From NCBI GenBank assembly GCA_051294905.1, contig CM119371.1:20338001-20402000 (forward strand): 64,000 nt of DNA, in the 5' to 3' direction. The DNA is from Botryllus schlosseri. Its lineage: Eukaryota. A model generated the notes under the pieces. It was given only the letters and a program-made list of their open reading frames with translations, made no database searches and had not been told where the DNA came from. The translations under genes were made by a program, and so were the position numbers. This document shows positions 1 through 17,600 of this stretch, piece by piece; within the stretch, counting starts at the first letter, position 1, and the number at the start of each line of letters is the position of its first letter.

Positions 1-1293
1 GAAGAATGTAAAGCCCGTGTGCTGGCAAATGCCGAGCGTTGTCGTGACCCTGTCGGTGGATTAGAAATTAAATTAGCGCATTTTGATCACATTCATTACG
101 ATACGGAAAATGGAGCTTTGAGATTTCCTGGGCCACCGCTGATGATCAAGGGTCACGGTAGGAGTGAAATGCGTGGCATACAGTCTTCCAAACGTACTAA
201 ATCTCGAAAGAAAAGGTTCTTGTTTTTTGCATTAATAATGGTTTTTTCGTCAATTTTTACATTAACTGCCGCATCAACATTACAGAGTGAGTTTAATGCT
301 AGGACGAAAGATCTTACTGACCAGTTGAACACTAGGTTTACATTGTTAGAGAGTGATCTTAAGGAAGTGGCCGACAAAGTTAACCAACTCGCAGCGGTAA
401 CGGTGTCCCAGGGTCAAAATCTAAATCAAGTAATCATAGGAATGTTAGAACATGAGCGAACGCGCGACGCCCAACTTGAGGCCATTATTGCCCAAGTTCA
501 TGAAAACAAGAATATGATAATAGCTCAAGCAGACTTGTATTTTTCTACTATTCAAACTGTGCACTCTATGACGATCGCAGAAGTGGCTGTAAATGATTTG
601 ATTATTTCAAAGTTACAAAATAGCACGGGAAAAGCTATTTTTGATTCAACCAAAGCTTATTTAGTGCGAATTAAAAATGGACTAATACATTTGAAAGAGC
701 ATGGCCAATTGATAACCGCGTATCAGTTGGATTATCGGAATTTTTCTAATCATCAAGGTCAAATTTTAAAGGCGGCGCGTGAAAAATTGAATGACACCAT
801 GGCAGAGACTGAATATAGGGTTAAGGTTTACCAACAAGGGGTGAATAGCACCTTAGTTTTGAACACTACCGAGTTTAGCCACGATAACATAACCTTCATT
901 TCCTTGAACGGCTCGATAGGAAAAGAACTATTCCAAGATATAGGATATGGCATAAAAACTGTAGCTGAGGGCACCGGCCATGTGATTAGTGAAATTTTGC
1001 AAGATACGGGAACTCTAATTAAGACAGGTGTCGATGGAGTTGGAGATATGATTGGTACCGGGCTAGGATCTATTTTTGGGGGATTAGGAAAATTTCTAAT
1101 TCCGATTGGCATAGTATTGGGTGCATTAATAATAATTTATTGTCTGATAAAATTCTCCCCAGGTTGTAAAAGTCGAAAAACTACGATAGCTGAAAGGAAT
1201 AATCATACTGAAATGGCTACTTTTGTCACAACCGTTGTACCACGCCGAAATATCGTTAAAAAAGTAGTGCGGCGATCTGAGTATAATGTATAA
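1..1293 (+). CDS. env: Envelope/fusion glycoprotein, class I-like (probably 5'-partial)
   Basis: Frame is open from base 1. Furin-type site RKKR (205-216) is followed by a hydrophobic segment FLFFALIMVFSSIFTLTAAS, long heptad-like helices (LTDQLNTRFTLLESDLKEVADKVNQL...), N-glycosylation sequons (NST, NFS, NDT, NTT, NIT, NGS), a Gly-rich membrane-proximal region, a TM helix FLIPIGIVLGALIIIYCLI and a basic cytoplasmic tail. Confidence 0.75.
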   Translation, partial: EECKARVLANAERCRDPVGGLEIKLAHFDHIHYDTENGALRFPGPPLMIKGHGRSEMRGIQSSKRTKSRKKRFLFFALIMVFSSIFTLTAASTLQSEFNARTKDLTDQLNTRFTLLESDLKEVADKVNQLAAVTVSQGQNLNQVIIGMLEHERTRDAQLEAIIAQVHENKNMIIAQADLYFSTIQTVHSMTIAEVAVNDLIISKLQNSTGKAIFDSTKAYLVRIKNGLIHLKEHGQLITAYQLDYRNFSNHQGQILKAAREKLNDTMAETEYRVKVYQQGVNSTLVLNTTEFSHDNITFISLNGSIGKELFQDIGYGIKTVAEGTGHVISEILQDTGTLIKTGVDGVGDMIGTGLGSIFGGLGKFLIPIGIVLGALIIIYCLIKFSPGCKSRKTTIAERNNHTEMATFVTTVVPRRNIVKKVVRRSEYNV

Positions 1294-1371
1294 ATTTTGT
1301 GCGATCTTACTTATAGTTGCAAATATTTAGAAATAGACTTAACCTATACATATTGTATTGAGGATATCATT

Positions 1372-3513
1372 ATGAAGCCAAGTGTCTGTCTTAATTTCGG
1401 GATGTGTTTCGTAACATGTGCCCTGTTCGCGCGGGGTGAAAAAGATAATTGGACATTGGCTGACTTGAAGATTCAACCAATCACGAGGCTGAATTACGAC
1501 CTATGGATAAATACTACGACGCGGTTGTCGGAACGAATAGCTCTGCAAGATTTGTTCCAATTGCCGAAGCTTGAGGGATCCTTGAATTCAACAAAATGGG
1601 AATCAAGACGATATGGTATGATTTCATCGAAAAATCGTACAATTAGCGAAAATCTCCAACCCCGTGGTAAATACTGGACCGATCCTGTAGCGTTAGAGCA
1701 ACAATGTCTGTGTGTTCGATCATTGGCTTTGGTTAGGCCGAGTTTGCAATACAGTAATCTATTCAAAAATGTCACCTATCATAGGAAACCACAATCCGAT
1801 TTAAGACATATGTTAGTTTGGGCGGAAACACCTGATTCATTAAGGCGGAATAATAATTTAAATGTATATAATGGCGTTATGACAATTTATAAATTTCTGC
1901 TCATTAAGTTACTACAGCGGCATTTGGTTGTTCAGGCCTCTTGTGAAAACACTGATGAGAATGATTTGGCTGGATCCACAGATTTCCCGATGAATATATT
2001 AAGAGAGTGTATACGAAGGCGTTACCGAGTAACGGTGTGTATATCTTGTGCTTTTTCCGGTTATCAGCAAATATTAGAACCGATCCCTAGAGGTTTCTTA
2101 ATTCAAGAATTTGACGATACCTTGGATAAGTTTTTATCTCGTGATACCACTGAGACAAATAACTTAGAGAGTCGATACCAATGGGCCGCGTCGGAGAATT
2201 ATTGGCCTTTGAAAGGAACCCGACCGATATTTGATGAAAATATTCGCTGGATTAAAGCGACGGTGAGACACACTGGGCGGGTTTATCGTGATGGTGACAT
2301 TAGGTTGCAATCTGGTAAGTTACCAGTCTATTCGTCGTTTCCGTCTATGCTACATGGGGACGGGTTCTGTAGAAATAGGACTCGGATAGTTGAGTGTGGA
2401 AATGTGTTCGTTGGAGTGAGGGCTAAAATCGCATTGCGTAACCATGTGAGATACGATCCGGCCCACAATAAGTCGGTATTCGCTGATATGAATGATGGGA
2501 TAATATTAGGTCGCCCTATAGAAGGCAAGGTTAAACGATCCATGGAAGTGAATAATACCTTTTTGATATTACCACCGGATCATTTGGGATTAACTTTTCA
2601 ACAATACTTGGACAATATGACTAATCAATTACTTGTTGCTATTCAACAAAATCTCGATCAATTAGCTGGACCAATCAGCAAAACCGGATTGCTAATCGAT
2701 AATCAGAGGGGAAAAAATGTTTCGAATCTACAGATACATTCTTATAGTGAAATAGTAAGTGAATATGAACGGCGATCCCAAGACATAGCGAGGTTGAATG
2801 ATTGTTTTATACAAAAAATGATATTAAAATTGTTGGGAAAAATGGATAAGAGGTTTGCAAGTTGGTATATTTCTGGAATGTGGTATGCAGCGTCATGGGA
2901 CAATGCGAACCTTATAGTCACACCGGTGGGTTATTATTCTCGCGATTTTGAACCAGCAACAATGTTAGAGCGAGTTATAAGAACTGGCGAAAAGTTGCCG
3001 GAATTGGGTGGTAATGGATCACGTGAAATGATACTAACTAGAACAACAGTTCGACCTACTATGAATTCTCAGGAGGCCACCAGAATAACTACAAGTATTG
3101 ACATTGGACTTCACGACCCTAGAACAACGGACATTTCTCTGGACACTGCAGAACCCGAGAACTCGCTGGAAACCGAAGTTGCCTTTCGGACTGACCTGGA
3201 TCCCAAAATAACATTAAAGCAGAGGTTGGAGAATTTATCGCGCGATGAACAAAATTATACGCGTAAAGGTTATAATGCACCGATATTGACCTTTAAAAAG
3301 ATTATGACATTGCTCGTCACTACAGAACCTGGAATAATTGCCGTAGTGGTAGGATTATTGGTGATATCGGGAATAATTATTGGCTATATTAATTACCGAT
3401 GCGTGAAAAAACAAGTAAAATACCGAATTGCCAAACGAAATAGAGATCATTGGATTACTATGATGCCAAGAAATGAGGATTTAGAGGATAATGATAATCC
3501 GTGGTACGACTAG
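1372..3513 (+). CDS. Second type I membrane glycoprotein (~713 aa), possibly class III fusogen-like (GP64/gB-like)
   Basis: First ATG at 1372 gives a signal-peptide-like MKPSVCLNFGMCFVTCALFARG. More than 10 N-x-S/T sequons, several Cys, C-terminal TM GIIAVVVGLLVISGIIIGYI and a basic tail. Segment RLNDCFIQKMILKLLGKMDKRF...NLIVTP loosely recalls the GP64/gB central-helix region (by eye). Confidence 0.7.
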   Translation: MKPSVCLNFGMCFVTCALFARGEKDNWTLADLKIQPITRLNYDLWINTTTRLSERIALQDLFQLPKLEGSLNSTKWESRRYGMISSKNRTISENLQPRGKYWTDPVALEQQCLCVRSLALVRPSLQYSNLFKNVTYHRKPQSDLRHMLVWAETPDSLRRNNNLNVYNGVMTIYKFLLIKLLQRHLVVQASCENTDENDLAGSTDFPMNILRECIRRRYRVTVCISCAFSGYQQILEPIPRGFLIQEFDDTLDKFLSRDTTETNNLESRYQWAASENYWPLKGTRPIFDENIRWIKATVRHTGRVYRDGDIRLQSGKLPVYSSFPSMLHGDGFCRNRTRIVECGNVFVGVRAKIALRNHVRYDPAHNKSVFADMNDGIILGRPIEGKVKRSMEVNNTFLILPPDHLGLTFQQYLDNMTNQLLVAIQQNLDQLAGPISKTGLLIDNQRGKNVSNLQIHSYSEIVSEYERRSQDIARLNDCFIQKMILKLLGKMDKRFASWYISGMWYAASWDNANLIVTPVGYYSRDFEPATMLERVIRTGEKLPELGGNGSREMILTRTTVRPTMNSQEATRITTSIDIGLHDPRTTDISLDTAEPENSLETEVAFRTDLDPKITLKQRLENLSRDEQNYTRKGYNAPILTFKKIMTLLVTTEPGIIAVVVGLLVISGIIIGYINYRCVKKQVKYRIAKRNRDHWITMMPRNEDLEDNDNPWYD

Positions 3514-4196
3514 TAAGGTTTTAAATTCAACAACAAGGAAAATAATTTCAATCAATATTGTGTAACTAGAGAAATCAGAATGTGAGAATATTGGATGTCA
3601 TATTTAATTGTGTAGGGTTAGCCTGTAAATTTAGTTCGTTGATTTTAAAATTCGTTGCTGTCTTGCACAATGACCATATGGTCGTTTTGATGGACGGAAA
3701 TGACCGGATATGGGTAGCATGAATAAGATATTCCAGGAAAATTTATGACGTTAGTTGATCACGACAATCGTTGAATCGGGCTCGATTATTAGATTAGGAG
3801 AGGGTTTAAAAAAACCGGAATCGGGTCATCATATTTTAACGGATATGGGCAAGCTGGGGTTTACGGATACCATATGTTGGGGTCTAACGTTGAATTGGTG
3901 GCACTCTGACGTATAAGTTTCCGATCTTAACTATCCTATGATGCTCGTTTCTTTTGGGCAAGGCGTGAGGCCTATTTCCGGTTGCCACTAGAAGAGAAAA
4001 TGATATATAGGATACATCGAAATATGGTTTAAGTCAAATAGATCGTGAGGGTCACGAGTGAAGGTTAGCGTAGTTAGGGTGATTGGGAATTTAAGAATAA
4101 ATGACCAATAACTATTAATGCTTATATCTGATTGTAGTGGCAGAGGAATTGCGAGAAATTAATTAATAGTTCTTAGTCGAGGCGGATCGGTTTAAG

Positions 4197-4883
4197 ATGG
4201 AAGGAATGAATTTGGAAATGATGAATGTTTATAGGAATCTACATGGGAATTGCCTTGCGCAATGTGGCTGCCTGGGATATTGTCCTCAGTTTTTCTGTAC
4301 CGAAGCCAAATTAACGTCGGCGCAGATAACCTGTCAATGGCAAACAATATTAAATAGTCGAGCATACCTTCAGATAAAAAATAAGAGTACGAGAATGAAA
4401 GATTATCTTCACTATTTTATATCAAAAAATTCAGATTTCACGAAACCACTTTTTGGCACTGATTACAGAGTGGAACGATGGTCTAGGAAATATAATGTGG
4501 CGCATTTCGTGGGATGTGAACTAGATCCGTTTAAGAATACGGGACTTTCGGACGAAATGTGGGAGGAGATCTATTGTATTCCATATTTGGGCAATGATTT
4601 GTGGATTACACGCATAATTGGAATATGTGCGAAAATGTTCCATAAATGTTTTAGGGAGCTTCTGCGTAGCATTTTCCCTGCCATGCCAAATCCAGAAGAG
4701 GGAATTAAAGATTTTATAATTTGGGTTTTGTACCCGGAAGCGATAATATTTGGACTGTCTAGTAATGAGGAGGGTGTTTTGGAGGAGAAAAGCATGTTAA
4801 TTTCGGAAACACATTATTTGGCTTGTCGTGATAAGAAGGCATTTAGTCTGAGGAGTTACTGTGATCGCTTTACCGGATTGTAA
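4197..4883 (+). CDS. Accessory protein 1, PWWP3A/MUM1 C-terminal-domain-like
   Basis: 228-aa intact ORF. Motif IKDFIIWVLYPEAIIFGLS...SETHYL (PEAII at 4734) is shared with the next two ORFs. Confidence 0.65.
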   Translation: MEGMNLEMMNVYRNLHGNCLAQCGCLGYCPQFFCTEAKLTSAQITCQWQTILNSRAYLQIKNKSTRMKDYLHYFISKNSDFTKPLFGTDYRVERWSRKYNVAHFVGCELDPFKNTGLSDEMWEEIYCIPYLGNDLWITRIIGICAKMFHKCFRELLRSIFPAMPNPEEGIKDFIIWVLYPEAIIFGLSSNEEGVLEEKSMLISETHYLACRDKKAFSLRSYCDRFTGL

Positions 4884-5039
4884 GATGATTGAAATTGAGA
4901 CCGTGATATCATGATAAGATGATGGTGTTGATCCTTGGTGTAACAAACAAAACAGAGAACTTGATATTAATAAATTGTGGTTTCCGTTAAGACGATATTA
5001 AAGTAATTTTGATATAAATAATAGGCTTCCTTACCAGCG

Positions 5040-5954
5040 ATGTGCGGCAATGGAATCTATTGTAATGAAGTCCACAGTACCAATTTTAGAAGAGAAAACG
5101 TGTTTTCAGTAATATGTGAGTGTGAAATGGTGGCAATCTTTATTGAAAGAAATACCACTGTAGATTGGGTAGCCACCATTTTGAGTCAAAACCAGCATTT
5201 GGGTATGAAGCATTTCAATAATCATCCAGGTCACCCCAATATTGACGCGTGGATACAGCGATATCGTAGAGAATATTTTCACTATTCAGACCAGCGGGAC
5301 CGTGTGTATACCGTTTTGGACGTAGCTTTGAGCTCCTATTTACGAAGTACCAATCAAGCTATGATCCCCAAAAGAAAGACAAAATTGATTCGCGGAGTTT
5401 TGGTCCCAGAGAAGGTTATATCGGCCATATCTGTCATAGACCGTGTTACATTGGCTAGCGCGGAATATAAATATTTGACATCGAACCTAGTCATTTTAGA
5501 AATTGCCTCCGAGCTTCTATGCGCCAATGATAATCACGCGGGTAGGAACTCGCAGGCCGAAATTGAGGGAGACGAAAGTAATGTATGGTCGGTAACTGAG
5601 GAGTCTATGGAAGCTACCACGACAGGAACAGCTGATGAGAGGGAACTTTATCTTCATCCAATAAAAAGGGAGGAATCGCCGTTAGTGGTCGGAGGCTCAG
5701 AATGTGAAGAGGACAACATGGATATCACAATTACACGCGTGGTGTCCCTTGCTCACCAACAGGAAGTCCGGGGGAAAAGGCGCGGATCTCGTCGAAGGCG
5801 ATTTTGGTGGAATCATGAACGGAATGTTGGACAACACCGTAGTCATGATCGATGTGCTCGGACCAGTCGATACGACGTCAGTCAGAACAGGTCGGAATTA
5901 GAGTTTGGGGAAGCGGGAAGTAGTAAATCGAGAATGGGATACTACCCTTATTGA
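5040..5954 (+). CDS. Accessory protein 2, PWWP3A/MUM1 C-terminal-domain-like, with acidic and Arg-rich (NLS-like) tail
   Basis: 304-aa ORF. YFHYSDQRDRVYTVL...KLIRGVLVPEKVISAISVIDRVTLASAEYKYL; tail has RGKRRGSRRRR. A pyrimidine tract plus CAG (cttccttaccag, ending 5037) lies just before the ATG. Confidence 0.7.
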   Translation: MCGNGIYCNEVHSTNFRRENVFSVICECEMVAIFIERNTTVDWVATILSQNQHLGMKHFNNHPGHPNIDAWIQRYRREYFHYSDQRDRVYTVLDVALSSYLRSTNQAMIPKRKTKLIRGVLVPEKVISAISVIDRVTLASAEYKYLTSNLVILEIASELLCANDNHAGRNSQAEIEGDESNVWSVTEESMEATTTGTADERELYLHPIKREESPLVVGGSECEEDNMDITITRVVSLAHQQEVRGKRRGSRRRRFWWNHERNVGQHRSHDRCARTSRYDVSQNRSELEFGEAGSSKSRMGYYPY

Positions 5955-6875
5955 AAAGTAGTTTTGACGTTAATGGCCGTAAGAACAGTCAGCCAAATGT
6001 ATGGTTTGGTGACAGACATGGAGTAGGCGTTGTATCATTGGAAATTTCATTTAGAGGTGTTTATTATATTAGAAGTGAAGTACGGATTTATTTTATTAGA
6101 TGTGGGTGGTGATTTAAGCATAATTACGAGATATGTAATTCTTTATATTATTTTAGATGTGTAATTTTACGAAAGGCGTTTAACCGATCCTTGCGCGGTT
6201 AAGGGTATTTCCTAATATTATTGATGGATGATATAGTATAATTAAATTTAATATTATTATGGTGGGCTTGACAATAGTGTTTCGAGTAATTTCAAAAAGA
6301 ATAGATGTAGGCTACCTTTTCCAAAGGTCATAGTGGAGCAGTAATAAGCAATTGAATATTACGAGAAATTATGTAATGGTTTAATGCGTAAGGCAGGAGT
6401 GGTTATATGATTGAAAGACTATGACATGGTTCGTATCGACGGCTTTGTAAATATTGTGAAATTAAAGTCGTATATGAGGATTATACCGGAAGGAATAAGG
6501 AAGTTATTAGATGATGGATAGAGGGATTTAAACTTATGGCCCTATGGCGTAGTTATCTAATTCATTAAATACTGTGTAAAATCTTAATAATCGAACGGCC
6601 CTAACAGTAGATAGTATGTCATGTAATTTACACGAAATGAGGTCATAAAATTGGAATTTTGTGAGTTATTACCCTTCAAAACAATGCCCGGCTGATCCAT
6701 ATGAAGCCATGTAATTGTGACCCTGACCCTTCATTAGTGTTTAGAACTGGACCTAGAACGTCAAAAATACTCATTTGTAATAGGCTCATGTGGTTATGTG
6801 TGATGTATAAATATTGTTTTAATTGAAATTTTATGGTTATGTATGATGTGATACAGTTTATGATATATTGGTTTA

Positions 6876-7466
6876 ATGCTCACGTGTAAGATACATTTAC
6901 CAGTTAATGTTGTTAAAGCATGCGCCATGTGCAAAGCGTTGTATTGCGAGTTTTCACGAACTGTTCATGCGGCTTGGTCTCCGACTGAAGAAGAATTTAT
7001 GGAGCAGGCCAAGAAAGAAATAGAATTTTTGACATCATCAGCCGAACCGCTGGTACACTTATGCGAAGTCCTTACCAACCAACTCCATCCCAGAGTAATG
7101 TGCGTCCTTGGAGACTTATGGGAGATATATTTCGACGATTATGAAGGTTTTTCATTGAAATACGTCCCTGAATATTATTGTTTCCATGGGTTGAAAGACG
7201 AAATCGGCAAATTTCTTGCGCACGTGGTGGACTGGATGTGCATAATCGACCCAGAAATCCCGCAACTGTGGCATGGTGATGAACAATTAAAAATCAAAGT
7301 GATTTATGATCTACTGTTGCCAGAAGCTATCATATTTTGCCATTCAAAATGTATGGGAATATCATTGGCTGATGCGGAAAACCATTATCTTAGAGATGGA
7401 AAGAATCAGTTGATTGCGGGTGGATGGAAGACTGCGAAGGGTAAACTGAATGATCCAGCCAGGTGA
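6876..7466 (+). CDS. Accessory protein 3, PWWP3A/MUM1 C-terminal-domain-like
   Basis: 196-aa ORF. KIKVIYDLLLPEAIIFCHSKCMGISLADAENHYL (PEAII at 7320); N-terminal CxxC...C. Confidence 0.65.
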   Translation: MLTCKIHLPVNVVKACAMCKALYCEFSRTVHAAWSPTEEEFMEQAKKEIEFLTSSAEPLVHLCEVLTNQLHPRVMCVLGDLWEIYFDDYEGFSLKYVPEYYCFHGLKDEIGKFLAHVVDWMCIIDPEIPQLWHGDEQLKIKVIYDLLLPEAIIFCHSKCMGISLADAENHYLRDGKNQLIAGGWKTAKGKLNDPAR

Positions 7467-8252
7467 GCTACGGGTTATTCGATGAAAGACAAAAAAGAGA
7501 CTGAATTATTGTATTATGTTCGGCATCAGGCGTTGTCTCAACCCGAAATGATTGGACAATATTGTTGATGAGTGGGTGCTCGCATGAGCATATGGCGTGC
7601 TTTAACATTTTATGTAATCGATTTAATTAGATTGTCCGATGGAGAGTGCTGATAATAAGTTTGAATTATTGGAGTGGTATAGTTAGATTTTATGTATATC
7701 AAGGAATTTGTTAGAGAGTGCTTATGGGCGGAAATTTTCAATATTGCTTTTGAAATATGTGTTTGTATTATGTTCTTGGAGATATTCCGTATGCATATAT
7801 ATTTGCGTATTGATTTAAATGAGAGTCGCGGATTGTTTATATATAATGGTATAGGACGTAATGGTAGCGTAATTCATATATGTACTTATCTTATCAGGTT
7901 GAAACAGAGGTTATAATTAACGATAAAAGGTTATAACGTTTTGTATTGTGGGTAGAATGACCCTAGAAGGTTGAATCATTTAGATATTTAGTGTACGGGA
8001 TGCTAAATATAGATGTTTTGCTTTCTAGTCCCCAAAAAATGGTGAATAAAATCACGCCCAACCCTATTTAGGTTACATGATTGTGTAGATATGTGGAGTA
8101 ATTATTTCATTTTTTTTTGGATCAATGTATATTGAAAATTGTGTGATTTTGTGTGAATTATTTAGTATGCGTTGTAACTAGTCCACGCCCCAGCGACTAG
8201 AACCCCTACACTTGAGTGAGGCTGGACGGTGATAAAACCAAGACAAGTTGCT

Positions 8253-8260
8253 GGGGAGAA
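8253..8260 (+). promoter_or_regulatory. Polypurine tract (plus-strand priming site)
   Basis: GGGGAGAA followed by C and then TGT (8262), a typical gypsy PPT/LTR junction. Confidence 0.55.
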
Positions 8261-8261
8261 C

Positions 8262-8774
8262 TGTCATAAAATTAGATAAGTAACACCCTAGTATACTCGA
8301 GATTATACAAATACACAAAAACCTTGATCAGCCTTAAACGATAAAATGAAGATGTAACAAGCCCTTCACCAGAATGCTTTGGCCCTAGGTCAATTATGAA
8401 TACATGAAATAGACTATAGGATATGTGGAGATGCTATTGAAATATGGTCTTGATCGCATATGTGTTGAATTGCATGATTTTAGAAGACTAAGTAACAGTT
8501 GGATGCATTTTACGAATGATTGTTGCTATGGTAACATTGCTACTTGAATGTAAAGTCTAATATTGGAGTATTTGGTTGTATTAAGGTACCAAGGTCAAGT
8601 GCGTACAAATATGTTAGCTAAGACTGGACCCTAAGGTCATTGAAAGTTCAAGACACTTCGAAGGCTGCGCCACCTGCAACAGTGATTCACCAAAATTGGA
8701 TTACAAGCAAAAGAACCAGGCAAACACAATATCTTCCTACTAACAAGATTGGAGGCAAGATATTTCTACAAACA
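8262..8774 (+). repeat. Putative single LTR (~513 bp), TGT...ACA
   Basis: Starts TGTCATAAA directly after the PPT and ends TACAAACA two bases before the PBS. Inferred from boundary signals only, as there is no second copy in the window. Confidence 0.55.
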
Positions 8775-8776
8775 TT

Positions 8777-8786
8777 TGGAGGCACC
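8777..8786 (+). promoter_or_regulatory. Primer binding site, tRNA-Thr type
   Basis: CA-TT-TGGAGGCACC is complementary to the 3' end (...GGTGCCTCCA) of eukaryotic tRNA-Thr(AGT) as recalled. It lies ~240 bp upstream of gag. Confidence 0.7.
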
Positions 8787-8833
8787 CTGAGGAATTGTAT
8801 TTCAAGGCGCCTGGTAATCATTGTTCTTGCTGG

Positions 8834-8998
8834 ATGATTTCGTCTTCAGAGGCTACTGGACGGCCACGATCAAGCAGCCGGATCGCAATTTTTATTAGCG
8901 TTTGCAGTATAATAGCGTTCTCGGTCGCTTGCTACGTCATAAAGTCATTGGACCATGCGCAATTCATAATGACGGCGAATGTGTCAAATATTCAGTAA
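8834..8998 (+). CDS. Leader uORF, 54-aa putative single-pass membrane peptide
   Basis: ATG at 8834. Basic residues, then the hydrophobic stretch IAIFISVCSIIAFSVACYVI, then an NVS sequon. Lies between PBS and gag. Confidence 0.3.
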   Translation: MISSSEATGRPRSSSRIAIFISVCSIIAFSVACYVIKSLDHAQFIMTANVSNIQ

Positions 8999-9022
8999 AT
9001 AGGGGGTGATTCTAAAGCAATT

Positions 9023-11413
9023 ATGAGTTTTTTTTGGCAGAAAAAGAAAAAAAATGACGCTTCTGCACTACAAAAGAATATTGCATTGATGAAAAACACT
9101 CAGCAGCGACATCTCGCGACTCAAACTAGAAAAGACCATTTAGTATCGGAGGTTCAGGACCAAGCAAAACTTTTGAAGGAGGTAAAATCTATGCTACCTA
9201 AAACTGTTAAAGATTTGAAACAGGCTAGAAAAGATGTCAAACAGGCGGAAATTGATTTGAACGCGGTACAAAAGGCCACCGAAAAAGCCTGCACCAAGAT
9301 ATCCGCTGAAACGCTGGACCAGGTTTTGAGTAGACAATTTCAAGCGGGGGTGGATTTTGAAAAAACGGAGGGAGTGTCAAAAATACTTTCTATGCCTACA
9401 TTGGCGAACCCAAGACCGTCCGCTCCACCGCCGGATTATCGTGCAACTCAAACCATTCCGGTATTTACGAAGGCTTTGCTTCCAAGTTCTAGTGATTCCA
9501 CGCTACCAAAAAAAATTCTGAAGCAACCCGGGGCAGCGCCGACTATAACAAATCCTAGTGTTATGCAAATGTCATCATTTCCCGTGGGAGTGGCTGGATT
9601 AGATGTGATTCCAGACCACCATGTCATCAGAGGATCAATTATTGGACCACCGGATTCGGAAGGCGTGCCACGATTGCTAGCATCGCAACGTTCACGTTTA
9701 ATTGCGAAGCCGTTATTCACCCCACAAAACACACAGCGCCAAGGGCGGATTGTGGTGCCCCGGCCAGGGAAAAGAACCAGAGTTACCTGGTACGATGATG
9801 ATAAGGGGGACGAGGGTGATAATGAGGACGATGACGCAGAGTCTGATCTTATTGACCTGGATGACCATAGTAGTGATTCGGGTCAGAGTCATGTTGATGT
9901 ACCAAATACGAAGCCCATGACGATGCAAGAAATTTTAGCCATCATGAAATCGCCCGGAAGTATGCCTCTGTTGCGATTTATCGAGGATATACTTAGATGT
10001 GTACCACACGGCGATGGTGATACGATAGCGGACCGAATCTTGGCCAACGCTATACAGCATAAATTAATCATGGCAAAGAGATCGGATGAGGCGGAGCAAT
10101 TGGCAGATATACTTAGCGTTGACAATCCAAAGTGGCAAGACGCTTTGGAAATATTGTCATTGGCCAACCCAATTGAGACGTGTAATAAGGATGCGTTGAT
10201 TCGTGAATTTGCCGAGTCATTCAATTGGACAAAGACACCTATATTGGAAATTCATCGAGTTCTCAGAAAGATGGACCTGCCCCTCGATCAGATAGTAATG
10301 GGCGACCCAGATGGTATTAGACTCTTTCGAAATCTGAGGTCACTATTGCCCCCCACCCTGAGAACCCTGCTACAGGGCTATGAATTTTTGTCATGGCAAA
10401 AAATCGCCAAATTGTTGCAGGAATTTTGGAATAGTGAGAAAATGGATCGTCAAGCCGCGATAAAACCGTACGCAACTCCGGCATCTTATCCAGTGCATAA
10501 GCAAATACCGACAGCCGTTAATACACCGAATTCCGTGTCTTATCCGGTAGCCACGCCCACGCCAGTGACGATATATAATTGTCAAACTCCGAGAGATATG
10601 CCGTGCTGCCCTACTAGGAGCTCGGAAGGCGTGAGAAGTCAAACGCTGTATCAAGGAGCTGGGGTCGCTTACACGGTGGAACCCACACGGCGGAATCCTG
10701 AACGACAAGCAAAGAAGAATCGTTTTCAGCTGAATCGGAATCAGCCAACCTTGAGAGGTAGGACCGATGTGCCTAGCGATAAAAGAGACTCCACTCCAGC
10801 GGACAGTTATGAAGCAAGAAGAATAGCTCAAGAACAAGGTAGATCTTATAATTTTCTTGAGAACCCAAACGTCTTTGAAAAGCTTGGATTGTATACGCAT
10901 CCTTCTAATGGCCAGAAGTTAATGGTGTGTTACCTATGTAAAAGTATAGGGCATTCTGTCAGCCAATGTTTATGCAAAGTAATCCTCTGGATTAACCAAC
11001 TAGTACTTACTAAAGATGAGGAGGGTGAATGGATTGTCCGCCCTCGCTCGAAACCCCTTCCAAGCCCATTGTTTGAAGAAGTAAAATCTAAGTGGGAATC
11101 TTTCCTCCGAGGTGAAAATCCGGAGGGCAGAAAGCTAATGACAATCCAAGATTTAAACCAATATTTCGCTGATCAGGGGTCCCCCAGTTTGCAAGAGAGA
11201 GCGCGGTTATGCGAATTGTATTTTGACGAGCGCCCAAAACGACGTGATCCATTAAATTGGCAACATAGACCAATTTTTGAACCGCCAAATATCGAGGCGC
11301 CAATGGCTAGTGCTAATCCTGTGGTTTGTCGTCCAAATGTCGTCCAACGGCCCTTTCCTCATTGGTCGGATTCAGAATTGTTAACTGGGGTGAATTTGTC
11401 AAAAAACGGTTAG
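9023..11413 (+). CDS. gag: Gag-like polyprotein (796 aa)
   Basis: Basic N-terminus (MSFFWQKKKK), coiled-coil, PSAPPPDY late-domain motif (9416-9439), acidic linker, helical CA-like region, and zinc knuckle CYLCKSIGHSVSQC (10928-10969). Overlaps pol in the -1 frame. Confidence 0.85.
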   Translation: MSFFWQKKKKNDASALQKNIALMKNTQQRHLATQTRKDHLVSEVQDQAKLLKEVKSMLPKTVKDLKQARKDVKQAEIDLNAVQKATEKACTKISAETLDQVLSRQFQAGVDFEKTEGVSKILSMPTLANPRPSAPPPDYRATQTIPVFTKALLPSSSDSTLPKKILKQPGAAPTITNPSVMQMSSFPVGVAGLDVIPDHHVIRGSIIGPPDSEGVPRLLASQRSRLIAKPLFTPQNTQRQGRIVVPRPGKRTRVTWYDDDKGDEGDNEDDDAESDLIDLDDHSSDSGQSHVDVPNTKPMTMQEILAIMKSPGSMPLLRFIEDILRCVPHGDGDTIADRILANAIQHKLIMAKRSDEAEQLADILSVDNPKWQDALEILSLANPIETCNKDALIREFAESFNWTKTPILEIHRVLRKMDLPLDQIVMGDPDGIRLFRNLRSLLPPTLRTLLQGYEFLSWQKIAKLLQEFWNSEKMDRQAAIKPYATPASYPVHKQIPTAVNTPNSVSYPVATPTPVTIYNCQTPRDMPCCPTRSSEGVRSQTLYQGAGVAYTVEPTRRNPERQAKKNRFQLNRNQPTLRGRTDVPSDKRDSTPADSYEARRIAQEQGRSYNFLENPNVFEKLGLYTHPSNGQKLMVCYLCKSIGHSVSQCLCKVILWINQLVLTKDEEGEWIVRPRSKPLPSPLFEEVKSKWESFLRGENPEGRKLMTIQDLNQYFADQGSPSLQERARLCELYFDERPKRRDPLNWQHRPIFEPPNIEAPMASANPVVCRPNVVQRPFPHWSDSELLTGVNLSKNG

Positions 11414-14400
11414 CTACACTGGCTCATTTTGTGAACCAGTGTGCAGACGAACTATTACCACATAGAACCGCGAGAATAATAAATAATTTGTCATTGCCGT
11501 TATTTAGTATGTTCGGGGAAATTAAAGATTCTGATGATTGTAATTTCGCAAAGCTTTTTGGGGGTGAATTGATGTACCTAGTCGATATGAACACTAATGT
11601 AAATTTTTTAGCAGACACAGGAAGCGTGCCAAATTTGATGATGTCGTCGACGGCGAAATTGGTTTATCCCTATAGTTGGCGAAGGCGGTGTTCATTGCGT
11701 ATGAATTTACAAGGTATAGGTGGGTCGTCACAGGTTGAGTCATTAATATATATAGAAATTGATGGGGTTTCAATTCCTTTTGCGTGTGGTAATGTCCCGT
11801 TAAATATTATCGGATATCATTGGATAGACAAGGTTATATCGCTGCCTTCAATTGATGCGGTGTTAAAAAGCCCGTCAATTGCAAGTCACGAGCTGGCTCA
11901 GTCCGAAATAGGTGTTCCGTGTTCATTGTCGACATATGCCGTGATAGAATATGATGACGAAGGGCGGGAAATAAAAACTTTGGCCAAACAAAGAAATAAC
12001 GTGAAGAACAGCAATCGCGAAGCTGTTTCGGATGTTAGGTCGTTAGAAATTGGAAAGTCGCACCCGTGCCAATTTAATAGTGACAGCGCTGTTAGTATAT
12101 GCGCTGAAAATATTGGTGAAATGCAGGCACGAAATTTGGTCACATTCGGTGTAAAATGTGAGTGCGACGGGTTGAAAAGTTTTAGGGCGCAAGATCTTTT
12201 CAATCCAATAGGCCCCGAAGTGGATGTTGACGTAAGCGTACCGAAGCATCAAAAATCTCATAGTGGAGAGTTATTTGCCTCGTTTCTAACGACAAATAAA
12301 AGGCCAAAATATTTCCCGCGAAAAGTATTCGATGGTCCAATAACGGAATATGTGTTGCAAAATGAATCGGATATAGAGGTTAGATTGGAATTGGAAGAAC
12401 TTCGTAAGCAATCCGTATTGCTGTCAAAAACGCCATTCCAACAGCCCGATCTAAATGACGACGCCAATGCTATTATAGACGAAAAAACATGGAGAGCGGT
12501 GTATGAGCCGTTCGCCGCGGAATTAGAAGATCTCGTCGGGCATCTACAGGGAAAGCAGGCCATGATGTATCCATGTAAAATAGAACTAAAAGATGAGTCG
12601 ACTACTCCTTTTGTGTCTTCGCCTTATAATTTAAGGGGTAAAGAACAATCGACTGCTTTGGAAGAAGCAATTGACAAATTTTTGCATCTTGGTATTGCAG
12701 AAGTTGGGTTTGCGGATTGGATGTTGCCTATATTTGTGGTTCCGCAAAAGGTGAACAGCGCCCAAATGAAATCTGGGGGCTGGACCCAGAAATGGCGTGT
12801 AGTGCAGAATTTACAGCCGTTAAACTCGAAAATCCGAATAATGGAAATAAATATGCCTTTAGTAAGCGATATGAAGCAATTGGCTCAAGGTTGCGAAGTC
12901 CTCTCATTGATCGATTTACAGAAGGCTTATTTTCATATTGACGTGGCCGAAGAATCAAGACATTTCCTGGGTATTGCGGTAAAAGGGCATTATATAAGAT
13001 ATCGGAAATTACCCATGGGGCTAATATTTAGCGGGGCTTTATTTACTATTAACATTTTAGAGGGGGTTATACAACCAGTTCTTAAAAAATATAAGGCTTA
13101 TATGGAATCCCAAGGTAGAAAGGACGAATTACTTTCAAACCCAATTGAGGCTTATATTGACGATATCTTTTTATGTACAAAAAATGTGAATGATCATTTA
13201 TTCCTTCTTAAAATTGTATTCGAGCAACTTGCACTAATGAAATTGACAGTCAGTGTACATAAGTGTTATTTTGGTAAACGAAAAATCGAACTGCTGGGTT
13301 CTACAATAACCGGCCGCAATATTGAAATCCAACCTCAACGCTTGTTTGCGTTGAAAACTATGGCACCCCCAAGAAATATTTACGAATTGCGTGGGTGGAT
13401 AGGATCTATACGGTATATTTCTGATCACGTACCAAAACTAAGCGTAAAACTAGCGAACTTTGATTCGCTCACGGGCAATGTGCCTGCGACGAGGGCAAAA
13501 TTAACGCCCGTATTTTGGACAAGGCAACTTTTAGAAGATTTTAAAATAATCCAGCATAGTCTTGATGATCCTCAGATTTTGTTTCATTTTGATCCCAAAT
13601 TGCCATTGTTCGTGGAAACTGATGCTTCAGACGTTGGGTTTGGGGCAGTAATGTTCCAAACAGAACTGGGAGCCACACACCCTTTCGACACGGTGTATCC
13701 TCTTGCGTATTATAGCCATAAGTGGGTCACTTCTACCGCGCGGGCGTATAACGCTTGTACTAAAGAATTGAAGGCACTTCGTGATTCGGTTGAAAAATGG
13801 CAAACTACCTTACGATGTACTCCTTTTACAATAATCACAGATAACGCTGGAGTATATGGACTACTTCAGAGGATGACCAGCCGGGGAAAGCATCCTAGCC
13901 CTGATCTGTTATTACAACGATGGTTGAGTTATTTGTCCGGTTTTCAGATAAAACGAGTTATTAATTTGAAAACAGATGAAGTGTTCACATCGGATGGTCT
14001 GTCTCGATCTTATTGGATGCAGTTCGCGGCGGACGACCAAGACCCAGGCGTGTGGACGGTGGTCGCTGATAATCAAGGGGGCGATACAACTGGGGGTGAA
14101 GTGAGTTCAAAAAAAATTGCAGAAAAAATATGTCGACGGGTACTACAACATTGTAGGCATGAGTCTTGTAAATATGTGCAAAATGGCTACCACCCATGGA
14201 AACAAGTTCAATTAATATTGCTTGAAAGTCTCGACATCAATTTTCCGATTGACGAATTGAAAAAGGTGTTATTAAATTGCAGACGTGCAATTTTAAACGA
14301 GACGGGGGTAGCAGCGGCACATGGGCATACTCTTGGACAGACGCCTAAATATGATGAATATGAAGGTAACGACGCTTTATTCCACATAACTAAACAAGAA

Positions 14401-14625
14401 AATTTGAAGTCCATAATACAGGGCGAATTAAAATCAATGAATCGCCGCTATATACATTTCACAAATAGGCGTGCTGAGATTAAAGATAGACATCGACAGA
14501 AGGTGGTGAGCGCACAACCTCAAGTATTGCGAAGATTGGGATATCATTTTTGGCAATCACCGAACCCGGAAGTTATTTTGTGTAAAGAATCGATCCCAGG
14601 GGTATTATTAAGAGTGGAGGAATGA
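11326..14625 (+). CDS. pol: Pol polyprotein: aspartic protease, reverse transcriptase, RNase H; no integrase DDE core recognised
   Basis: FLADTGS (DTG 11614-11622); RT motifs WRVVQNLQPLN, LIDLQKAYFHI, LPMGL, YIDD (13153-13164), LLG; RNase H VETDASDVGFGAV, KELKAL, IITDN, SDGLSR. About 200 aa follow without a D,D(35)E pattern. Confidence 0.92.
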   Translation: MSSKCRPTALSSLVGFRIVNWGEFVKKRLATLAHFVNQCADELLPHRTARIINNLSLPLFSMFGEIKDSDDCNFAKLFGGELMYLVDMNTNVNFLADTGSVPNLMMSSTAKLVYPYSWRRRCSLRMNLQGIGGSSQVESLIYIEIDGVSIPFACGNVPLNIIGYHWIDKVISLPSIDAVLKSPSIASHELAQSEIGVPCSLSTYAVIEYDDEGREIKTLAKQRNNVKNSNREAVSDVRSLEIGKSHPCQFNSDSAVSICAENIGEMQARNLVTFGVKCECDGLKSFRAQDLFNPIGPEVDVDVSVPKHQKSHSGELFASFLTTNKRPKYFPRKVFDGPITEYVLQNESDIEVRLELEELRKQSVLLSKTPFQQPDLNDDANAIIDEKTWRAVYEPFAAELEDLVGHLQGKQAMMYPCKIELKDESTTPFVSSPYNLRGKEQSTALEEAIDKFLHLGIAEVGFADWMLPIFVVPQKVNSAQMKSGGWTQKWRVVQNLQPLNSKIRIMEINMPLVSDMKQLAQGCEVLSLIDLQKAYFHIDVAEESRHFLGIAVKGHYIRYRKLPMGLIFSGALFTINILEGVIQPVLKKYKAYMESQGRKDELLSNPIEAYIDDIFLCTKNVNDHLFLLKIVFEQLALMKLTVSVHKCYFGKRKIELLGSTITGRNIEIQPQRLFALKTMAPPRNIYELRGWIGSIRYISDHVPKLSVKLANFDSLTGNVPATRAKLTPVFWTRQLLEDFKIIQHSLDDPQILFHFDPKLPLFVETDASDVGFGAVMFQTELGATHPFDTVYPLAYYSHKWVTSTARAYNACTKELKALRDSVEKWQTTLRCTPFTIITDNAGVYGLLQRMTSRGKHPSPDLLLQRWLSYLSGFQIKRVINLKTDEVFTSDGLSRSYWMQFAADDQDPGVWTVVADNQGGDTTGGEVSSKKIAEKICRRVLQHCRHESCKYVQNGYHPWKQVQLILLESLDINFPIDELKKVLLNCRRAILNETGVAAAHGHTLGQTPKYDEYEGNDALFHITKQENLKSIIQGELKSMNRRYIHFTNRRAEIKDRHRQKVVSAQPQVLRRLGYHFWQSPNPEVILCKESIPGVLLRVEE
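11401..11444 (+). promoter_or_regulatory. -1 programmed ribosomal frameshift signal (gag-pol)
   Basis: Slippery heptamer A AAA AAC (11401-11407) is in the correct gag phase, with a single codon (GGT) between it and the gag TAG. A hairpin follows: ACACTGG (11416-11422) pairs with CCAGTGT (11436-11442), with extra GC/GC and TCA/TGA pairs. pol is in the -1 frame. Confidence 0.8.
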
Positions 14626-17600
14626 AATAAGGTGATATTTACTTAGTAGAAAATGGCCTGAGAATTAATAAAGTAAATAATCGCAAGATGAAGCCTTGGT
14701 TGTTGTCATTATATACCAGGCTACAGTTTAATTGGTTTAAAGGCGGGTGTATAATATAGTTATCGGTGAGCCACATGTTTCAGATTTGAAGAATGAAAAT
14801 TGATGTAATCCTAAAAAGCTAATATTCGGTGGATCGTTTCTCTGAAATAGCGGGAAGATTGCCGGAAAGAATACCCATAAGGCCTGTGATTAACAGTCGG
14901 AAATATGAGTCATATGAGGCTTCGGTCATACGATCATTTGTATGGTATTGTCGTCATGGGCTAGAGTGTGCACCATGACAACAGATATGCGGGCGGAAAA
15001 TGCGCATGCTCCTATGTCCTTGGCCTTGCATTTCTACGAGTTACGTTGCTTCGTGCATCAGCCCCACACATTGCATAAGTTATTATTGTTTCCATCCAGA
15101 AACTTGCTTGTTGTATGTATATTTCTCAGATATAAAGGTAATATTGATGTAACACTTATTATCGATATCTCTCACTGCAAATTGCAAGTACGATGAAAGT
15201 TGCGAAAAGTTATCACAAAAGTGGTATCGGATATTATCTTGTTTCAACTGATACCAACGTTGGGAATACATTTTCACAAAATGGACCTATTACTATGTTG
15301 AATGTCATCAGGATAATGGGATATATTCCGTTATGATCATGAACTTGCTGGAAAAATCAGGATAGCTAAAGGTTGTACCATAGGGAAGCCCCGCTGTATG
15401 TTGCTGATTGTAAATGTTTCGCACAATTACTGGGGTGGCATGAAAATCAGTCACCAAACAAATACGAAAGGAGGAATGTGACTTTAGAAAACTGCAACGT
15501 GGAAGATTCTGGAGATCTTATCTCATAATATGGTGACATTCAGCTGTGGATTCACAGACTGCATCTCAAGGCAGGGAGCAAATGATGCACTGCGAATGAT
15601 ATTGGGCGCCTTTAATTTTGTGAACTACAGACACTGCTCAACGAAAATGCCTTGCTAGATCACTAGGTTACTCTCCAGTCTCCAATTACAGTGCAGATGG
15701 CTGTTTTTTATGCACTTGGCAATCATTTTTGCATGTTACCCGTCATATTACAACTTTGCAAGGTGTCAGCTGTCTGTGTTTTGGTTTGTAGTCAATAGTG
15801 TCTTCTGGTTAGAGCTATCGAAAGATATCGGGGGCAAAACTTAGAACACTCCGGAAAACTCCGGATAAATATCTGCTGTAAACTCCGAGCCCACTCCGAG
15901 TATCACAAAATTGGCAAAACTCCGCTCCGGAAACACTCCGACTCCGCTCCGATGCTCATCACTGGTGCTTGAAGGGTCAGGTCTTTATAAGAACCCTCCA
16001 GCACTCCTATGCAAAATACAGCATATTTTATGTGATTGAAAAATGCTTGATCGCAGGAGTTTTTTTTAGAGTATGGCACAAATGACCCATGAGGTCCCAG
16101 TTTGTCGAAGATGTGCGAATCCACATGTTTGTTTTGATGTTTTTGCCTGATGGTTTGGAAAAAAAAGCTTCAAAGCTCTCAAGGAGAATAGTCATATTAG
16201 AGCTCGCTGACTTATGATAGGCTGCTCCAACTTGTGCTTAGTTATTTTCTTTCAATTTTCCATTTTCTGTGTTTCGAGTAAATGAGAGGAGCAGAGAAAG
16301 TCAAGATGCCGTGTGTTCGGCTTTTTAGCGCAATCCATCTTGAAAGTTCATAACAGTTCAATAACCATGTAGCAGCGGTTGTTAAACTTTTTAAACAGCG
16401 ACAAAATTCTGAGGCTTAGTGACATCACGCGACCCAAGCCTTTCACATCAGAAATAATGCATTTTTATCATTAGCATGCTACCATTTTACGGGCATGTGA
16501 GACGCAGAGAACCCGCATACACTATTTATAAGAAATACAGCTCTACGAAACATGTCTGATACACGCGATTTCAAATTGGAGAGATTTACACGCCTCTGTG
16601 CGACGCATTTGTACTACTGTCTAGTCAGATTGCAAGGACGGGATTATTCGGTGCTGACTGACTGCCAAGCAGCGACGGTAATTGTAGGCCGAGGTTTTGT
16701 TACTGCTGATCTTTCTGCCACCGCACTTTCCCAGCAGTAGGTTGGCCAAACCTTCACATCTTAATGTGTCCCGACGACCTCGACCTCAAAAGAAATTAGT
16801 CTCATTGGCCCGCACCCGCTCGTTGTACACCCATACACTGAAGAATCGCAGAGGTCTTAGACGGTGTTTTCTAGAGAAATCAGTTGGACAGTCGTGAATT
16901 CAAACTAATTTATGTAACGCAAATGTTGGGACATTTTCATGGTCAAGCCATATTTTCTGCATGTCTCGCATATTGGCTATCGTTCCCTCCACATTTAATT
17001 TTTCAAAAACTACCACAAGTCGTTACGACACCTTCCTATCTTTTCATTGTCTCGCAGTTTTATGGTGATTTGAAATGATGATAATATTATTAAACTGATT
17101 CAGTGACCTTGAGTATAAAAAAACTAACCACGTGCAATCGCGCCCAGCGCGAAGGAATTTGTCGCAACAAATTTAACGAATATTATATACATCATAAAGG
17201 GGCACTGCACTCTAAAGTCTAAATACGATGTGGTCTCAAATTAAACATGAAATCGGGAAAATGTTTTTGTCCGAGGCCATTTTCTTGGGAAAGCCACCGT
17301 GATGGAGAGGTAGCTAAATGAAAATTCAAACTATCCTCATTCCTCGCTATTTGAATTAATAGTCATCAATAGTGGCGCGGCTGCGAGTCTACGGCTGCTT
17401 AACCCCTGCTTAATCTCCACTTGCACTTGCTCGACGCGGCCACCATATTCTATTCACTTCATTTCTTTAAGTCAGTGGTTTTCAACGTTTTTGTCTTAGC
17501 AGAACCGTTTTGGACCGTCATGGACCCCCGCGGACCCCAAAAGGTTTAGTTCAATTTTAGCTCTATCACCGTGCAACCGTCGTCGTCTGTCCTGAAATGT

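Follow-up and report, generated by a model that had tools for sequence, protein, structure and literature searches.

PF20886 (PWP3A-B_C) is the C-terminal domain of the PWWP3A/B proteins (MUM1/EXPAND1 and MUM1L1), of which PWWP3A is a regulator of DNA damage and innate immunity, and neither a solved structure nor a relative by fold was found for the domain. PWWP3A is described as a chromatin factor recruited by 53BP1 (PMC9162042) and, in a second report, as an inhibitor of MAVS signalling that acts through its PWWP domain (PMC12045991). Among mobile elements, small non-enzymatic genes that accompany gag, pol and env, and whose conservation goes with that of the element, are described from complex retroviruses and long terminal repeat (LTR) retrotransposons such as those of bdelloid rotifers (PMC5408684), and Teratorn is presented as a herpesvirus, that is a DNA virus, combined with piggyBac in a unit of about 180 kb (PMC10175614, PMC6431247). 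Here we describe a stretch of 64,000 nucleotides from Botryllus schlosseri (assembly GCA_051294905.1, contig CM119371.1, positions 20,338,001 to 20,402,000 of the forward strand; hereafter the window) in which three open reading frames (ORFs), A, B and C, code for proteins that resemble the PWWP3A/B C-terminal domain. All three serve as working accessory genes in a composite element of 17.8 kb, which moves as a whole unit.

The three PF20886-like genes

A sequence-only reading of this DNA had described three paralogous ORFs (Table 1), joined by a shared motif, and had likened them to a stand-alone PWWP3A/MUM1 C-terminal domain. All three frames lie on the forward strand at the coordinates given and contain the quoted motif strings, LYPEAIIFGLS at residues 178–188 of A, LVPEKVISAIS at residues 121–131 of B and LLPEAIIFCHS at residues 147–157 of C, and the PWWP3A C-terminal string given for comparison is close to real sequences such as Callorhinchus PWWP3A (P0008). 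A short motif alone is insufficient proof of common ancestry and comparison of the single sequences by BLASTP is weak (A with C, E 0.003; B with C, E 0.009; A with B, no match), so that the paralogy of A, B and C rests on profiles. The family alignments consist of this genome's own copies and their relatives, and the combined alignment holds 13 element sequences and no PWWP3 sequence. With hhalign the A and C family profiles match at a probability of 97.7% over 146 columns, A and B at 83% and B and C at 74%; thinner alignments in a separate run gave 96.2%, 43% and 23% for the same pairs. Paralogy thus extends beyond the motif, as had been proposed, across families that share only 17–26% identity.

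The proteins share a domain of about 150 residues that is all-helical and ends in the helix pair hhxPE(A)IIxAxS...AExx(Y/F)L. Two cysteines and the glutamate of the PE-AII helix are invariant in 13 of the 13 element sequences, with the proline and one isoleucine nearly so, and the cysteines form a Cys-x(4-5)-Cys pair directly after the start methionine of the family. AlphaFold2 models calculated from mixed alignments are all-helical for residues 1–160 of B (predicted local distance difference test score, pLDDT, 85.8; predicted template modelling score, pTM, 0.83) and for residues 18–196 of C (pLDDT 72.9, pTM 0.74), the order and lengths of the helices being the same in both. B continues past the domain for about 150 extra residues, at first acidic and then with the arginine-rich stretch RGKRRGSRRRRF at residues 244–255, and no enzyme motifs are present in A, B or C. 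Judged by sequence profiles and models, one all-helical domain is present in three old paralogs that have diverged from one another. The models of B and C resemble no structure among those solved or predicted for viruses, an absence that does not prove the fold to be new. Abraxas, the sole return of the A/B/C profile against PDB sequences (E 0.024), was taken as noise. NCBIfam and PHROGs gave no match for A, B, C, the second env-like protein (env2) or gag, and word-indexed protein searches returned nothing for B (near lengths) or C (longer lengths). In ESM Atlas the recognition value of ORF A is 1821, under the tool's mark, and the nearest named clusters are transposase-related (RAG1 Zn regions, Plavaka, Transposase_21), which we treat as a lead only.

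The resemblance to the PWWP3A/B C-terminal domain is borne out by searches in both directions. Against PF20886, for which the curated cut-off of Pfam is 27 bits, B scores 36.3 bits (E 6.5e-9) and its four genomic copies 35.2–36.7 bits, while C is borderline at 26.9 bits (E 5e-6) with hmmscan and at 27.0–28.5 bits in the genome scan. Aligned by hhalign to 32 PWWP3 C-terminal sequences, the A family reaches a probability of 96.6% (E 6.2e-10, 116 columns; 89.9% for the A of this element alone), B 97.1% (E 5.6e-11, 66 columns, 36% identity) and C 97.3% (E 2.5e-11, 110 columns). In the reciprocal search the profile made from the 13 element sequences returned 39 matches at E<=1e-3 among 1.84 billion representative proteins. 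The top seven are short stand-alone ORFs on ENA or Logan contigs of 1–3 kb, and the other 32 are longer, PWWP3-type proteins aligned at their C-terminal end. Thirty of the 39 were scanned with Pfam, and all 23 that follow the first seven have PF20886 at 80–205 bits, most of them together with MUM1-like PWWP and PWP3A-B_N domains. The best match of the PWWP3 type is PWWP3A of Callorhinchus milii (E 1.8e-7, profile positions 22–167), and the named ones all come from jawed vertebrates (elephant shark, gar, coelacanth, frog, rodent and teleosts). The PWWP3 alignment begins past the cysteine pair, which therefore seems special to the element proteins. Sequence comparison accordingly assigns B to PF20886 by Pfam's rule, leaves C borderline and admits A only through profiles. 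The stand-alone form noted at the outset also held up, no PWWP or PWP3A-B_N domain being found by Pfam in A, B or C; because these modules are absent, the three are not PWWP3 orthologs, only homologs of one domain.

In three short annotated proteins from cyprinid fish (P0024, P0026 and P0028) a PF20886 domain is linked to the end of a Ulp1 protease (Peptidase_C48); either the gene models are chimeric or vertebrates may have copies of the domain borne by transposons.

The carrier element, its copies and selection

Comparison by blastn of three copies of the element (on contigs C1, C13 and C15, by which the copies are named) reveals sharp common ends with unrelated flanks, which place the element between L006:7285 and window position 15065, a span of 17.8 kb. 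The 7-bp target duplication is present in all three copies and each has its own (ACACATT, GGCTTGA and GAAAATA), and the terminal inversion covers about 15 bases and is only imperfect. No direct repeat that could be an LTR was found at the ends, either by repeat search or by short-word self-blast of the element with 1.5-kb flanks, and the integrase domain (rve, PF00665) is absent by Pfam from every large ORF of the element. The gene order is transposase, env-like 1, env-like 2, A, B, C, a 1.5-kb spacer, gag and pol (Table 1). Residues D142, D211 and E251 of the transposase, which would constitute the catalytic triad, are kept without exception in the 9 homologs compared. Homologs of this enzyme, with 126 matches in the genome, are found with every related element seen. 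The two env-like proteins are paralogous (29–30% identity), and env2 matches nothing in Pfam, PDB, NCBIfam or PHROGs. In the C1 copy env-like gene 1 is broken by an in-frame TAA (L006:9632-9634), a position at which C13 and C15 have an open frame.

The Tpt1/KptA-like domain occupies the position in pol where an integrase would normally be expected. Among 5.8 billion proteins this pol has only five close relatives (36–43% identity), with an integrase in none of the five and Tpt1 in two, and the next matches are ordinary Ty3/gypsy pols at about 25% identity; in ESM Atlas the pol part falls into generic reverse transcriptase (RT)/RNase H clusters at 0.83. Two defining features of the LTR retrotransposon and retrovirus group (Ortervirales), LTRs and integrase, are missing from the carrier. 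Its sequence describes a composite in which gag-pol-env genes of the retrovirus type are combined with an enzyme and a footprint at the insertion site that are those of a DNA transposon. The earlier designation of the carrier as a retroelement is half right: gag, protease, RT and RNase H are there, but in place of LTRs and integrase it has imperfectly inverted ends, 7-bp duplications and a DDE transposase.

Table 1. Positions of the element, its genes and the leader-like stretch. Coordinates refer to the window unless preceded by L006; aa, amino acids; TM, transmembrane.
Feature	Position	Strand	Description
Mobile element, part in window	1..15065	+	starts 2,715 bases left of window at L006:7285; three-copy blastn
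IS1595-type DDE transposase, first gene	L006:7679-8641 (2.0-2.3 kb left of window start)		PF12762, E 2.3e-16, 60.6 bits (cut-off 27)
Env-like glycoprotein 1, C-terminal part	1..1293	+	ORF start in L006 near 8897; 8 NxS/T sites; TM-like aa 354-385 of windowed part
Env-like glycoprotein 2 (env2)	1297..3513	+	738 aa; 13 NxS/T sites; C-terminal TM-like stretch aa 678-699
ORF A	4197-4883	+	228 aa; PF20886-like paralog with 27-aa N-terminal extension; conserved Cys pair at aa 29 and 34
ORF B	5040-5954	+	304 aa; PF20886-like domain aa 1-155, then acidic tail with arginine-rich end
ORF C	6876-7466	+	196 aa; PF20886-like paralog; conserved Met-Cys start of the family at aa 18 (window 6927)
Leader-like stretch	8562..8593	+	identical to the 5' leader found on many RNA reads, which run on into unrelated sequences; flanks repeated in genome
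Gag-like ORF	9023..11413	+	796 aa; CCHC zinc knuckle 10928-10969
Pol	11326..14625	+	-1 frame relative to gag; protease ADTGS 11611-11625; RT with YIDD 13153-13164; RNase H; no integrase
Tpt1/KptA-like RNA 2'-phosphotransferase domain	14302..14583	+	pol C-terminus; PF01885, E 3e-7, 31.1 bits (cut-off 26); NCBIfam NF002013, E 1.4e-11
Right end of element	15050..15072		about 15 bases, imperfect inverse of left end, then duplication ACACATT 15066-15072

The 495-Mb assembly contains four copies of the subfamily to which this element belongs and dozens of relatives with pol 53–57% identical, some of which span 35 kb or more; every relative examined is accompanied by transposase homologs. The copies C13 and C15 are 99.6–99.7% identical and sit at different sites, from which we conclude that the unit moved recently with A, B and C aboard. 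The family hidden Markov model finds exactly three ORFs in the present element and two in each examined relative, one A-like of about 290 residues and one C-like of about 170 residues, the C-like genes at 25–28% identity. B is limited to one 4-copy subfamily, and A-like and C-like genes extend across the whole diverged element family. The giant relatives have two transposase paralogs each, and the second transposase gene lies directly downstream of the C-like gene.

Selection on these genes was estimated from the ratio of nonsynonymous to synonymous substitution rates (dN/dS), with C1 compared with C13 and with C15. This check, which had been called for in the sequence-only reading, gives 0.12–0.14 for A, 0.20–0.23 for B as a whole (0.09–0.10 for its domain and 0.32–0.38 for its tail) and 0.27–0.29 for C, as against 0.22 for gag, 0.17–0.19 for pol, 0.29 for env2 and 0.08–0.10 for the transposase. 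All element genes tested are under purifying selection (0.08–0.29), and A, B and C are in line with the rest. At 86–94% identity between copies the frame of A is open in two of the four and those of B and C in three of the four, and the C16 copy is broken in several genes.

Further observations concern the copies and relatives themselves. Over window positions 4786–5785, which cover the end of A together with B, C1 and C15 are only 88–89% identical as against 93–98% elsewhere; the dS of A and B is 0.25–0.31, about threefold that of the other genes, with dN/dS still low, a pattern that points to recombination of one element lineage with another. Within its gag the C13 copy (C13:14915888-14953477, loci L012-L017) harbours an insertion of 20.6 kb. 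Giant relatives at L031:8090-9139 (C3), L034:8098-9147 (C7) and L035:5511-6635 (C1) have extra conserved ORFs between the A-like and C-like genes, among them highly acidic ORFs and one for a leucine-rich-repeat protein that has a membrane anchor and begins like a signal peptide. The D-, E-, F- and G-type ORFs of the giant relatives were ruled out as further paralogs, none of them giving a match to the A/B/C profile.

Origin of the domain and its proposed role

PF20886 has 24 matches in this genome, all of them inside copies of the element family, and no MUM1-like PWWP domain was found in it; both results come from exon-by-exon searches, and the negative is a weak one. The relation between element and PWWP3 sequences was examined in a maximum-likelihood tree of 51 rows and 167 columns, comprising 32 PWWP3 tails and element ORFs, which is unrooted and for which a midpoint root served for drawing only. 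A single branch (support 92/88) divides all 32 PWWP3 tails from every element ORF. B and P0006, a B ortholog of 57% identity from another source, neighbour PWWP3 (87/85), and the A-like and C families are placed further out. Since no element ORF is nested within PWWP3, the tree gives no support to a capture from this host or from any living vertebrate lineage, and the capture from the host put forward in the sequence-only reading is, at least as a recent event, not borne out. On the sequence evidence the exchange with PWWP3 looks single and older than the split between cartilaginous and bony vertebrates. As the tree is unrooted, both directions of transfer are possible, and the spread of A-like and C-like genes over the whole family with B in one subfamily leans slightly to the element as the older home of the domain.

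The account that we consider probable, with some reserve, is that A, B and C are old paralogs of the PF20886 domain and working genes of the element, that a single ancient exchange links them to PWWP3, and that they would act as non-enzymatic binding adaptors. It is compatible with either direction of that exchange. Domestication of the PWWP3A/B C-terminal domain from a B-like element gene, followed by its fusion to PWWP modules before jawed vertebrates diversified, is possible, if in our judgement short of an even chance. The element ORFs are far more diverse, with the low identity between families given above, than the PWWP3 domains, which one Pfam model covers at 80–205 bits; PWWP3 forms one group that adjoins a single element lineage, the midpoint root used for drawing falls among the element ORFs, and the stand-alone form is the rule in elements. 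However, the tree is unrooted with long branches, the fast evolution of mobile elements inflates their diversity, and no vertebrate or near relative of vertebrates has been shown to carry an element of this kind.

The opposite course is unlikely. In it the element would have acquired from a host PWWP3 gene its C-terminal domain, which, stripped of the PWWP module, was then triplicated, with products that serve as decoys or anti-silencing factors. It has in its favour that the homology and the paralogy are real, that B is nearest to PWWP3 in the tree, and that, with a root on the PWWP3 branch, one capture and later duplication would fit. The searches described detected no gene of the PWWP3 type in the host, however, which leaves nothing there for a decoy to mimic, and the named PWWP3 matches are confined to jawed vertebrates, while the RNA reads of this host show a common leader on varied sequences; spliced-leader trans-splicing is not known in vertebrates. 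The separation of every element ORF from PWWP3 also speaks against capture, as does the wide distribution of A-like and C-like genes beside a B restricted to one subfamily, where the reverse would be expected if B were the founder.

As to what the proteins do, A, B and C may be protein-binding adaptors for nuclear steps of the element. The invariant PE-AII helix would be a shared binding face, B could enter the nucleus through its arginine-rich tail, and at least C may work with the element's transposase, in the manner of the accessory proteins of some DNA transposases or of the host tether of a retroviral integrase. This adaptor role is proposed because of the helical, non-enzymatic nature of the proteins, the helix conserved with PWWP3, the nuclear-type tail of B, the pairing of C-like and transposase genes and the predicted complex of C with the transposase. 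The complex reached a median score of 0.50 (runs 0.00, 0.50 and 0.63) as against 0.04 for the best control, a result classed as ‘weak support’, with agreement between runs in at least 0% of contacts and a partner pLDDT of at least 40. The mark for this score is reached by 51 of 78 solved complexes and by 2 of 108 mismatched pairs, and scores of <=0.60 belong to only 5 of the 78 solved complexes and to all 4 mismatches that passed. The modelling thus lends weak support to a putative contact between C and the transposase.

Several results weigh against the adaptor account and the history proposed with it. On the side of homology, A taken alone has no Pfam match at E<=1, the A of this element compared alone with B is not significant by hhalign, and the grouping of B with PWWP3 brings long branches together, which the tree tool flags as possibly false. 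The searches for a host PWWP3 were run exon by exon and may miss a split gene. On the side of function, a complex score of this kind, by the tool's own account, misleads more often than not where the pairing was not already a likely one, a single run of the three gave 0.00, the fold of the partner was uncertain, and in the present element no transposase gene adjoins C. The activity of PWWP3A that is mapped in the report on MAVS resides, as far as that report describes it, in the PWWP domain and not in the C-terminal tail (PMC12045991). Finally, RNA depth is zero over window positions 4137–7755, as it is over nearly all of the element, in four RNA-seq runs with the same species label, 6–13 in 100 of each run having been read, so that the C1 copy is silent or very low in those samples.

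That A, B and C are instead structural proteins of a particle, matrix- or tegument-like, with no dealings with chromatin or transposase and a likeness to PWWP3 that reflects shared ancestry of a helical scaffold, seems to us less likely still than capture. Particles are plausible for an element that encodes gag and two env-like glycoproteins, and the ORFs are small, helical and devoid of enzyme motifs. The arginine-rich stretch and acidic tail of B are nevertheless typical of nuclear or regulatory proteins, as far as can be read from the sequence, the strongest conservation across element ORFs and PWWP3 is concentrated in one short helix, more in the manner of a binding face than of a lattice, and the modelled contact of C with the transposase, weak as its support is, points the same way. 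Chance open frames or decayed remnants, with the match a composition artefact, would fit the missing RNA reads and the weak pairwise BLASTP but are scarcely credible for frames that stay open in two or three of four copies at 86–94% identity with dN/dS well below 1, find significant reciprocal matches among 1.84 billion proteins, show homology by profile and yield confident models.

The locus has a wider bearing. Three selected stand-alone copies in a host without detectable PWWP3 offer a second, independent setting for asking what PF20886 binds, and the origin of the vertebrate PWWP3 tail becomes a testable question of capture or domestication. The boldest form of the argument, to which we give as little credence as to capture, would make the carrier a member of an undescribed class of composite mobile elements or endogenous viruses, bounded by terminal inverted repeats, in which a gag/protease-RT-RNase H/env set has had its integrase swapped for an IS1595-type transposase, with the PF20886-like proteins as partners of the transposase and the PWWP3A/B tail as a domesticated B-like gene joined to PWWP modules that read chromatin, a LEDGF-like tether of viral origin.

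Other features of the window and comparison with known systems

Many RNA reads carry a common 30-base leader directly behind the template-switch adaptor and then continue into varied sequences, which is most simply the host's spliced leader, added by trans-splicing. Within 2 mismatches the leader has 55 genomic sites as against 0 for the reversed pattern, and in related elements several of these precede gag. At four dispersed sites the likeness to the element extends over about 150 bases before the leader and 200 bases after it (flanks approximately 8412–8790), and the region around 8562–8593 could be a gene resembling that of a spliced-leader RNA carried by the element, or a small derivative element. 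It matches no Rfam family and its fold is no better than that of shuffled sequences (z 0.42). To the right of the element the DNA at 15066–15500 is transcribed, with a depth of 2–23 in the four runs, and the reads from it are highly polymorphic, as if the sequence were both repeated and expressed; some reads have the leader joined at 15128. Further along, positions 19016–21375 and 25720–28079 form a perfect inverted duplication of 2,360 bases with arrays of a repeat of about 200 bases. It encloses a Bcl-2-like open frame at 24096–24728 that contains NWGRIV, and may be either a palindrome of recent date or an artefact of the assembly.

A literature search that covered sources other than subscription journals and Repbase found no mobile element reported to carry PF20886-like genes and no RT element reported to have an IS1595/Merlin transposase; the sole literature match for PF20886/PWP3A-B_C was an unrelated mention of InterPro. 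Compared with PWWP3A/B, the element proteins have a homologous helical domain of about 140–150 residues with the LLPEAII...AEEKY helix pair conserved, but in the element the domain stands alone without PWP3A-B_N and the MUM1-like PWWP, has an extra N-terminal cysteine pair, and is present threefold in a mobile element whose host has no detected PWWP3. LEDGF/p75 consists of a PWWP domain and a helical integrase-binding domain that holds the integration enzyme. Its likeness to PWWP3, a PWWP chromatin reader joined to a small helical domain, would be an analogy of function only, with no match seen in sequence or fold. With complex retroviruses and LTR retrotransposons the element has in common small non-enzymatic genes beside gag, pol and env, but here the carrier has neither LTRs nor integrase. 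A CCHC gag, a pol in the -1 frame, a DTG protease, the YIDD RT and RNase H are shared with Ty3/gypsy (Metaviridae), which provides the nearest ordinary relatives at about 25% identity, whereas LTRs and the rve integrase are absent and a Tpt1/KptA-like domain ends pol.

Merlin elements are small, encode a transposase only and have target duplications usually given as 8–9 bp. The DDE_Tnp_IS1595 transposase with its invariant acidic residues places the present element beside the Merlin/IS1595 transposons, to whose ends its own short, imperfectly inverse ends and target duplication may correspond; it differs from them in its length of 17.8 kb, its many genes and its 7-bp duplication. For the carrier as a whole Teratorn is the nearest analogy, and an analogy is what we take it to be: both present a virus-like gene set within a DDE-transposase element bounded by inverted repeats, imperfect ones in the present case, as Teratorn is described in the reports cited above, but where Teratorn pairs a herpesvirus with piggyBac, the element described here combines gag, protease-RT-RNase H and env with an IS1595-type transposase in 17.8 kb, or at least 35 kb in some relatives. 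An RT/gag/env element that integrates by means of a transposase would blur the boundaries between retroelement, DNA transposon and virus, as Teratorn did for the herpesviruses.

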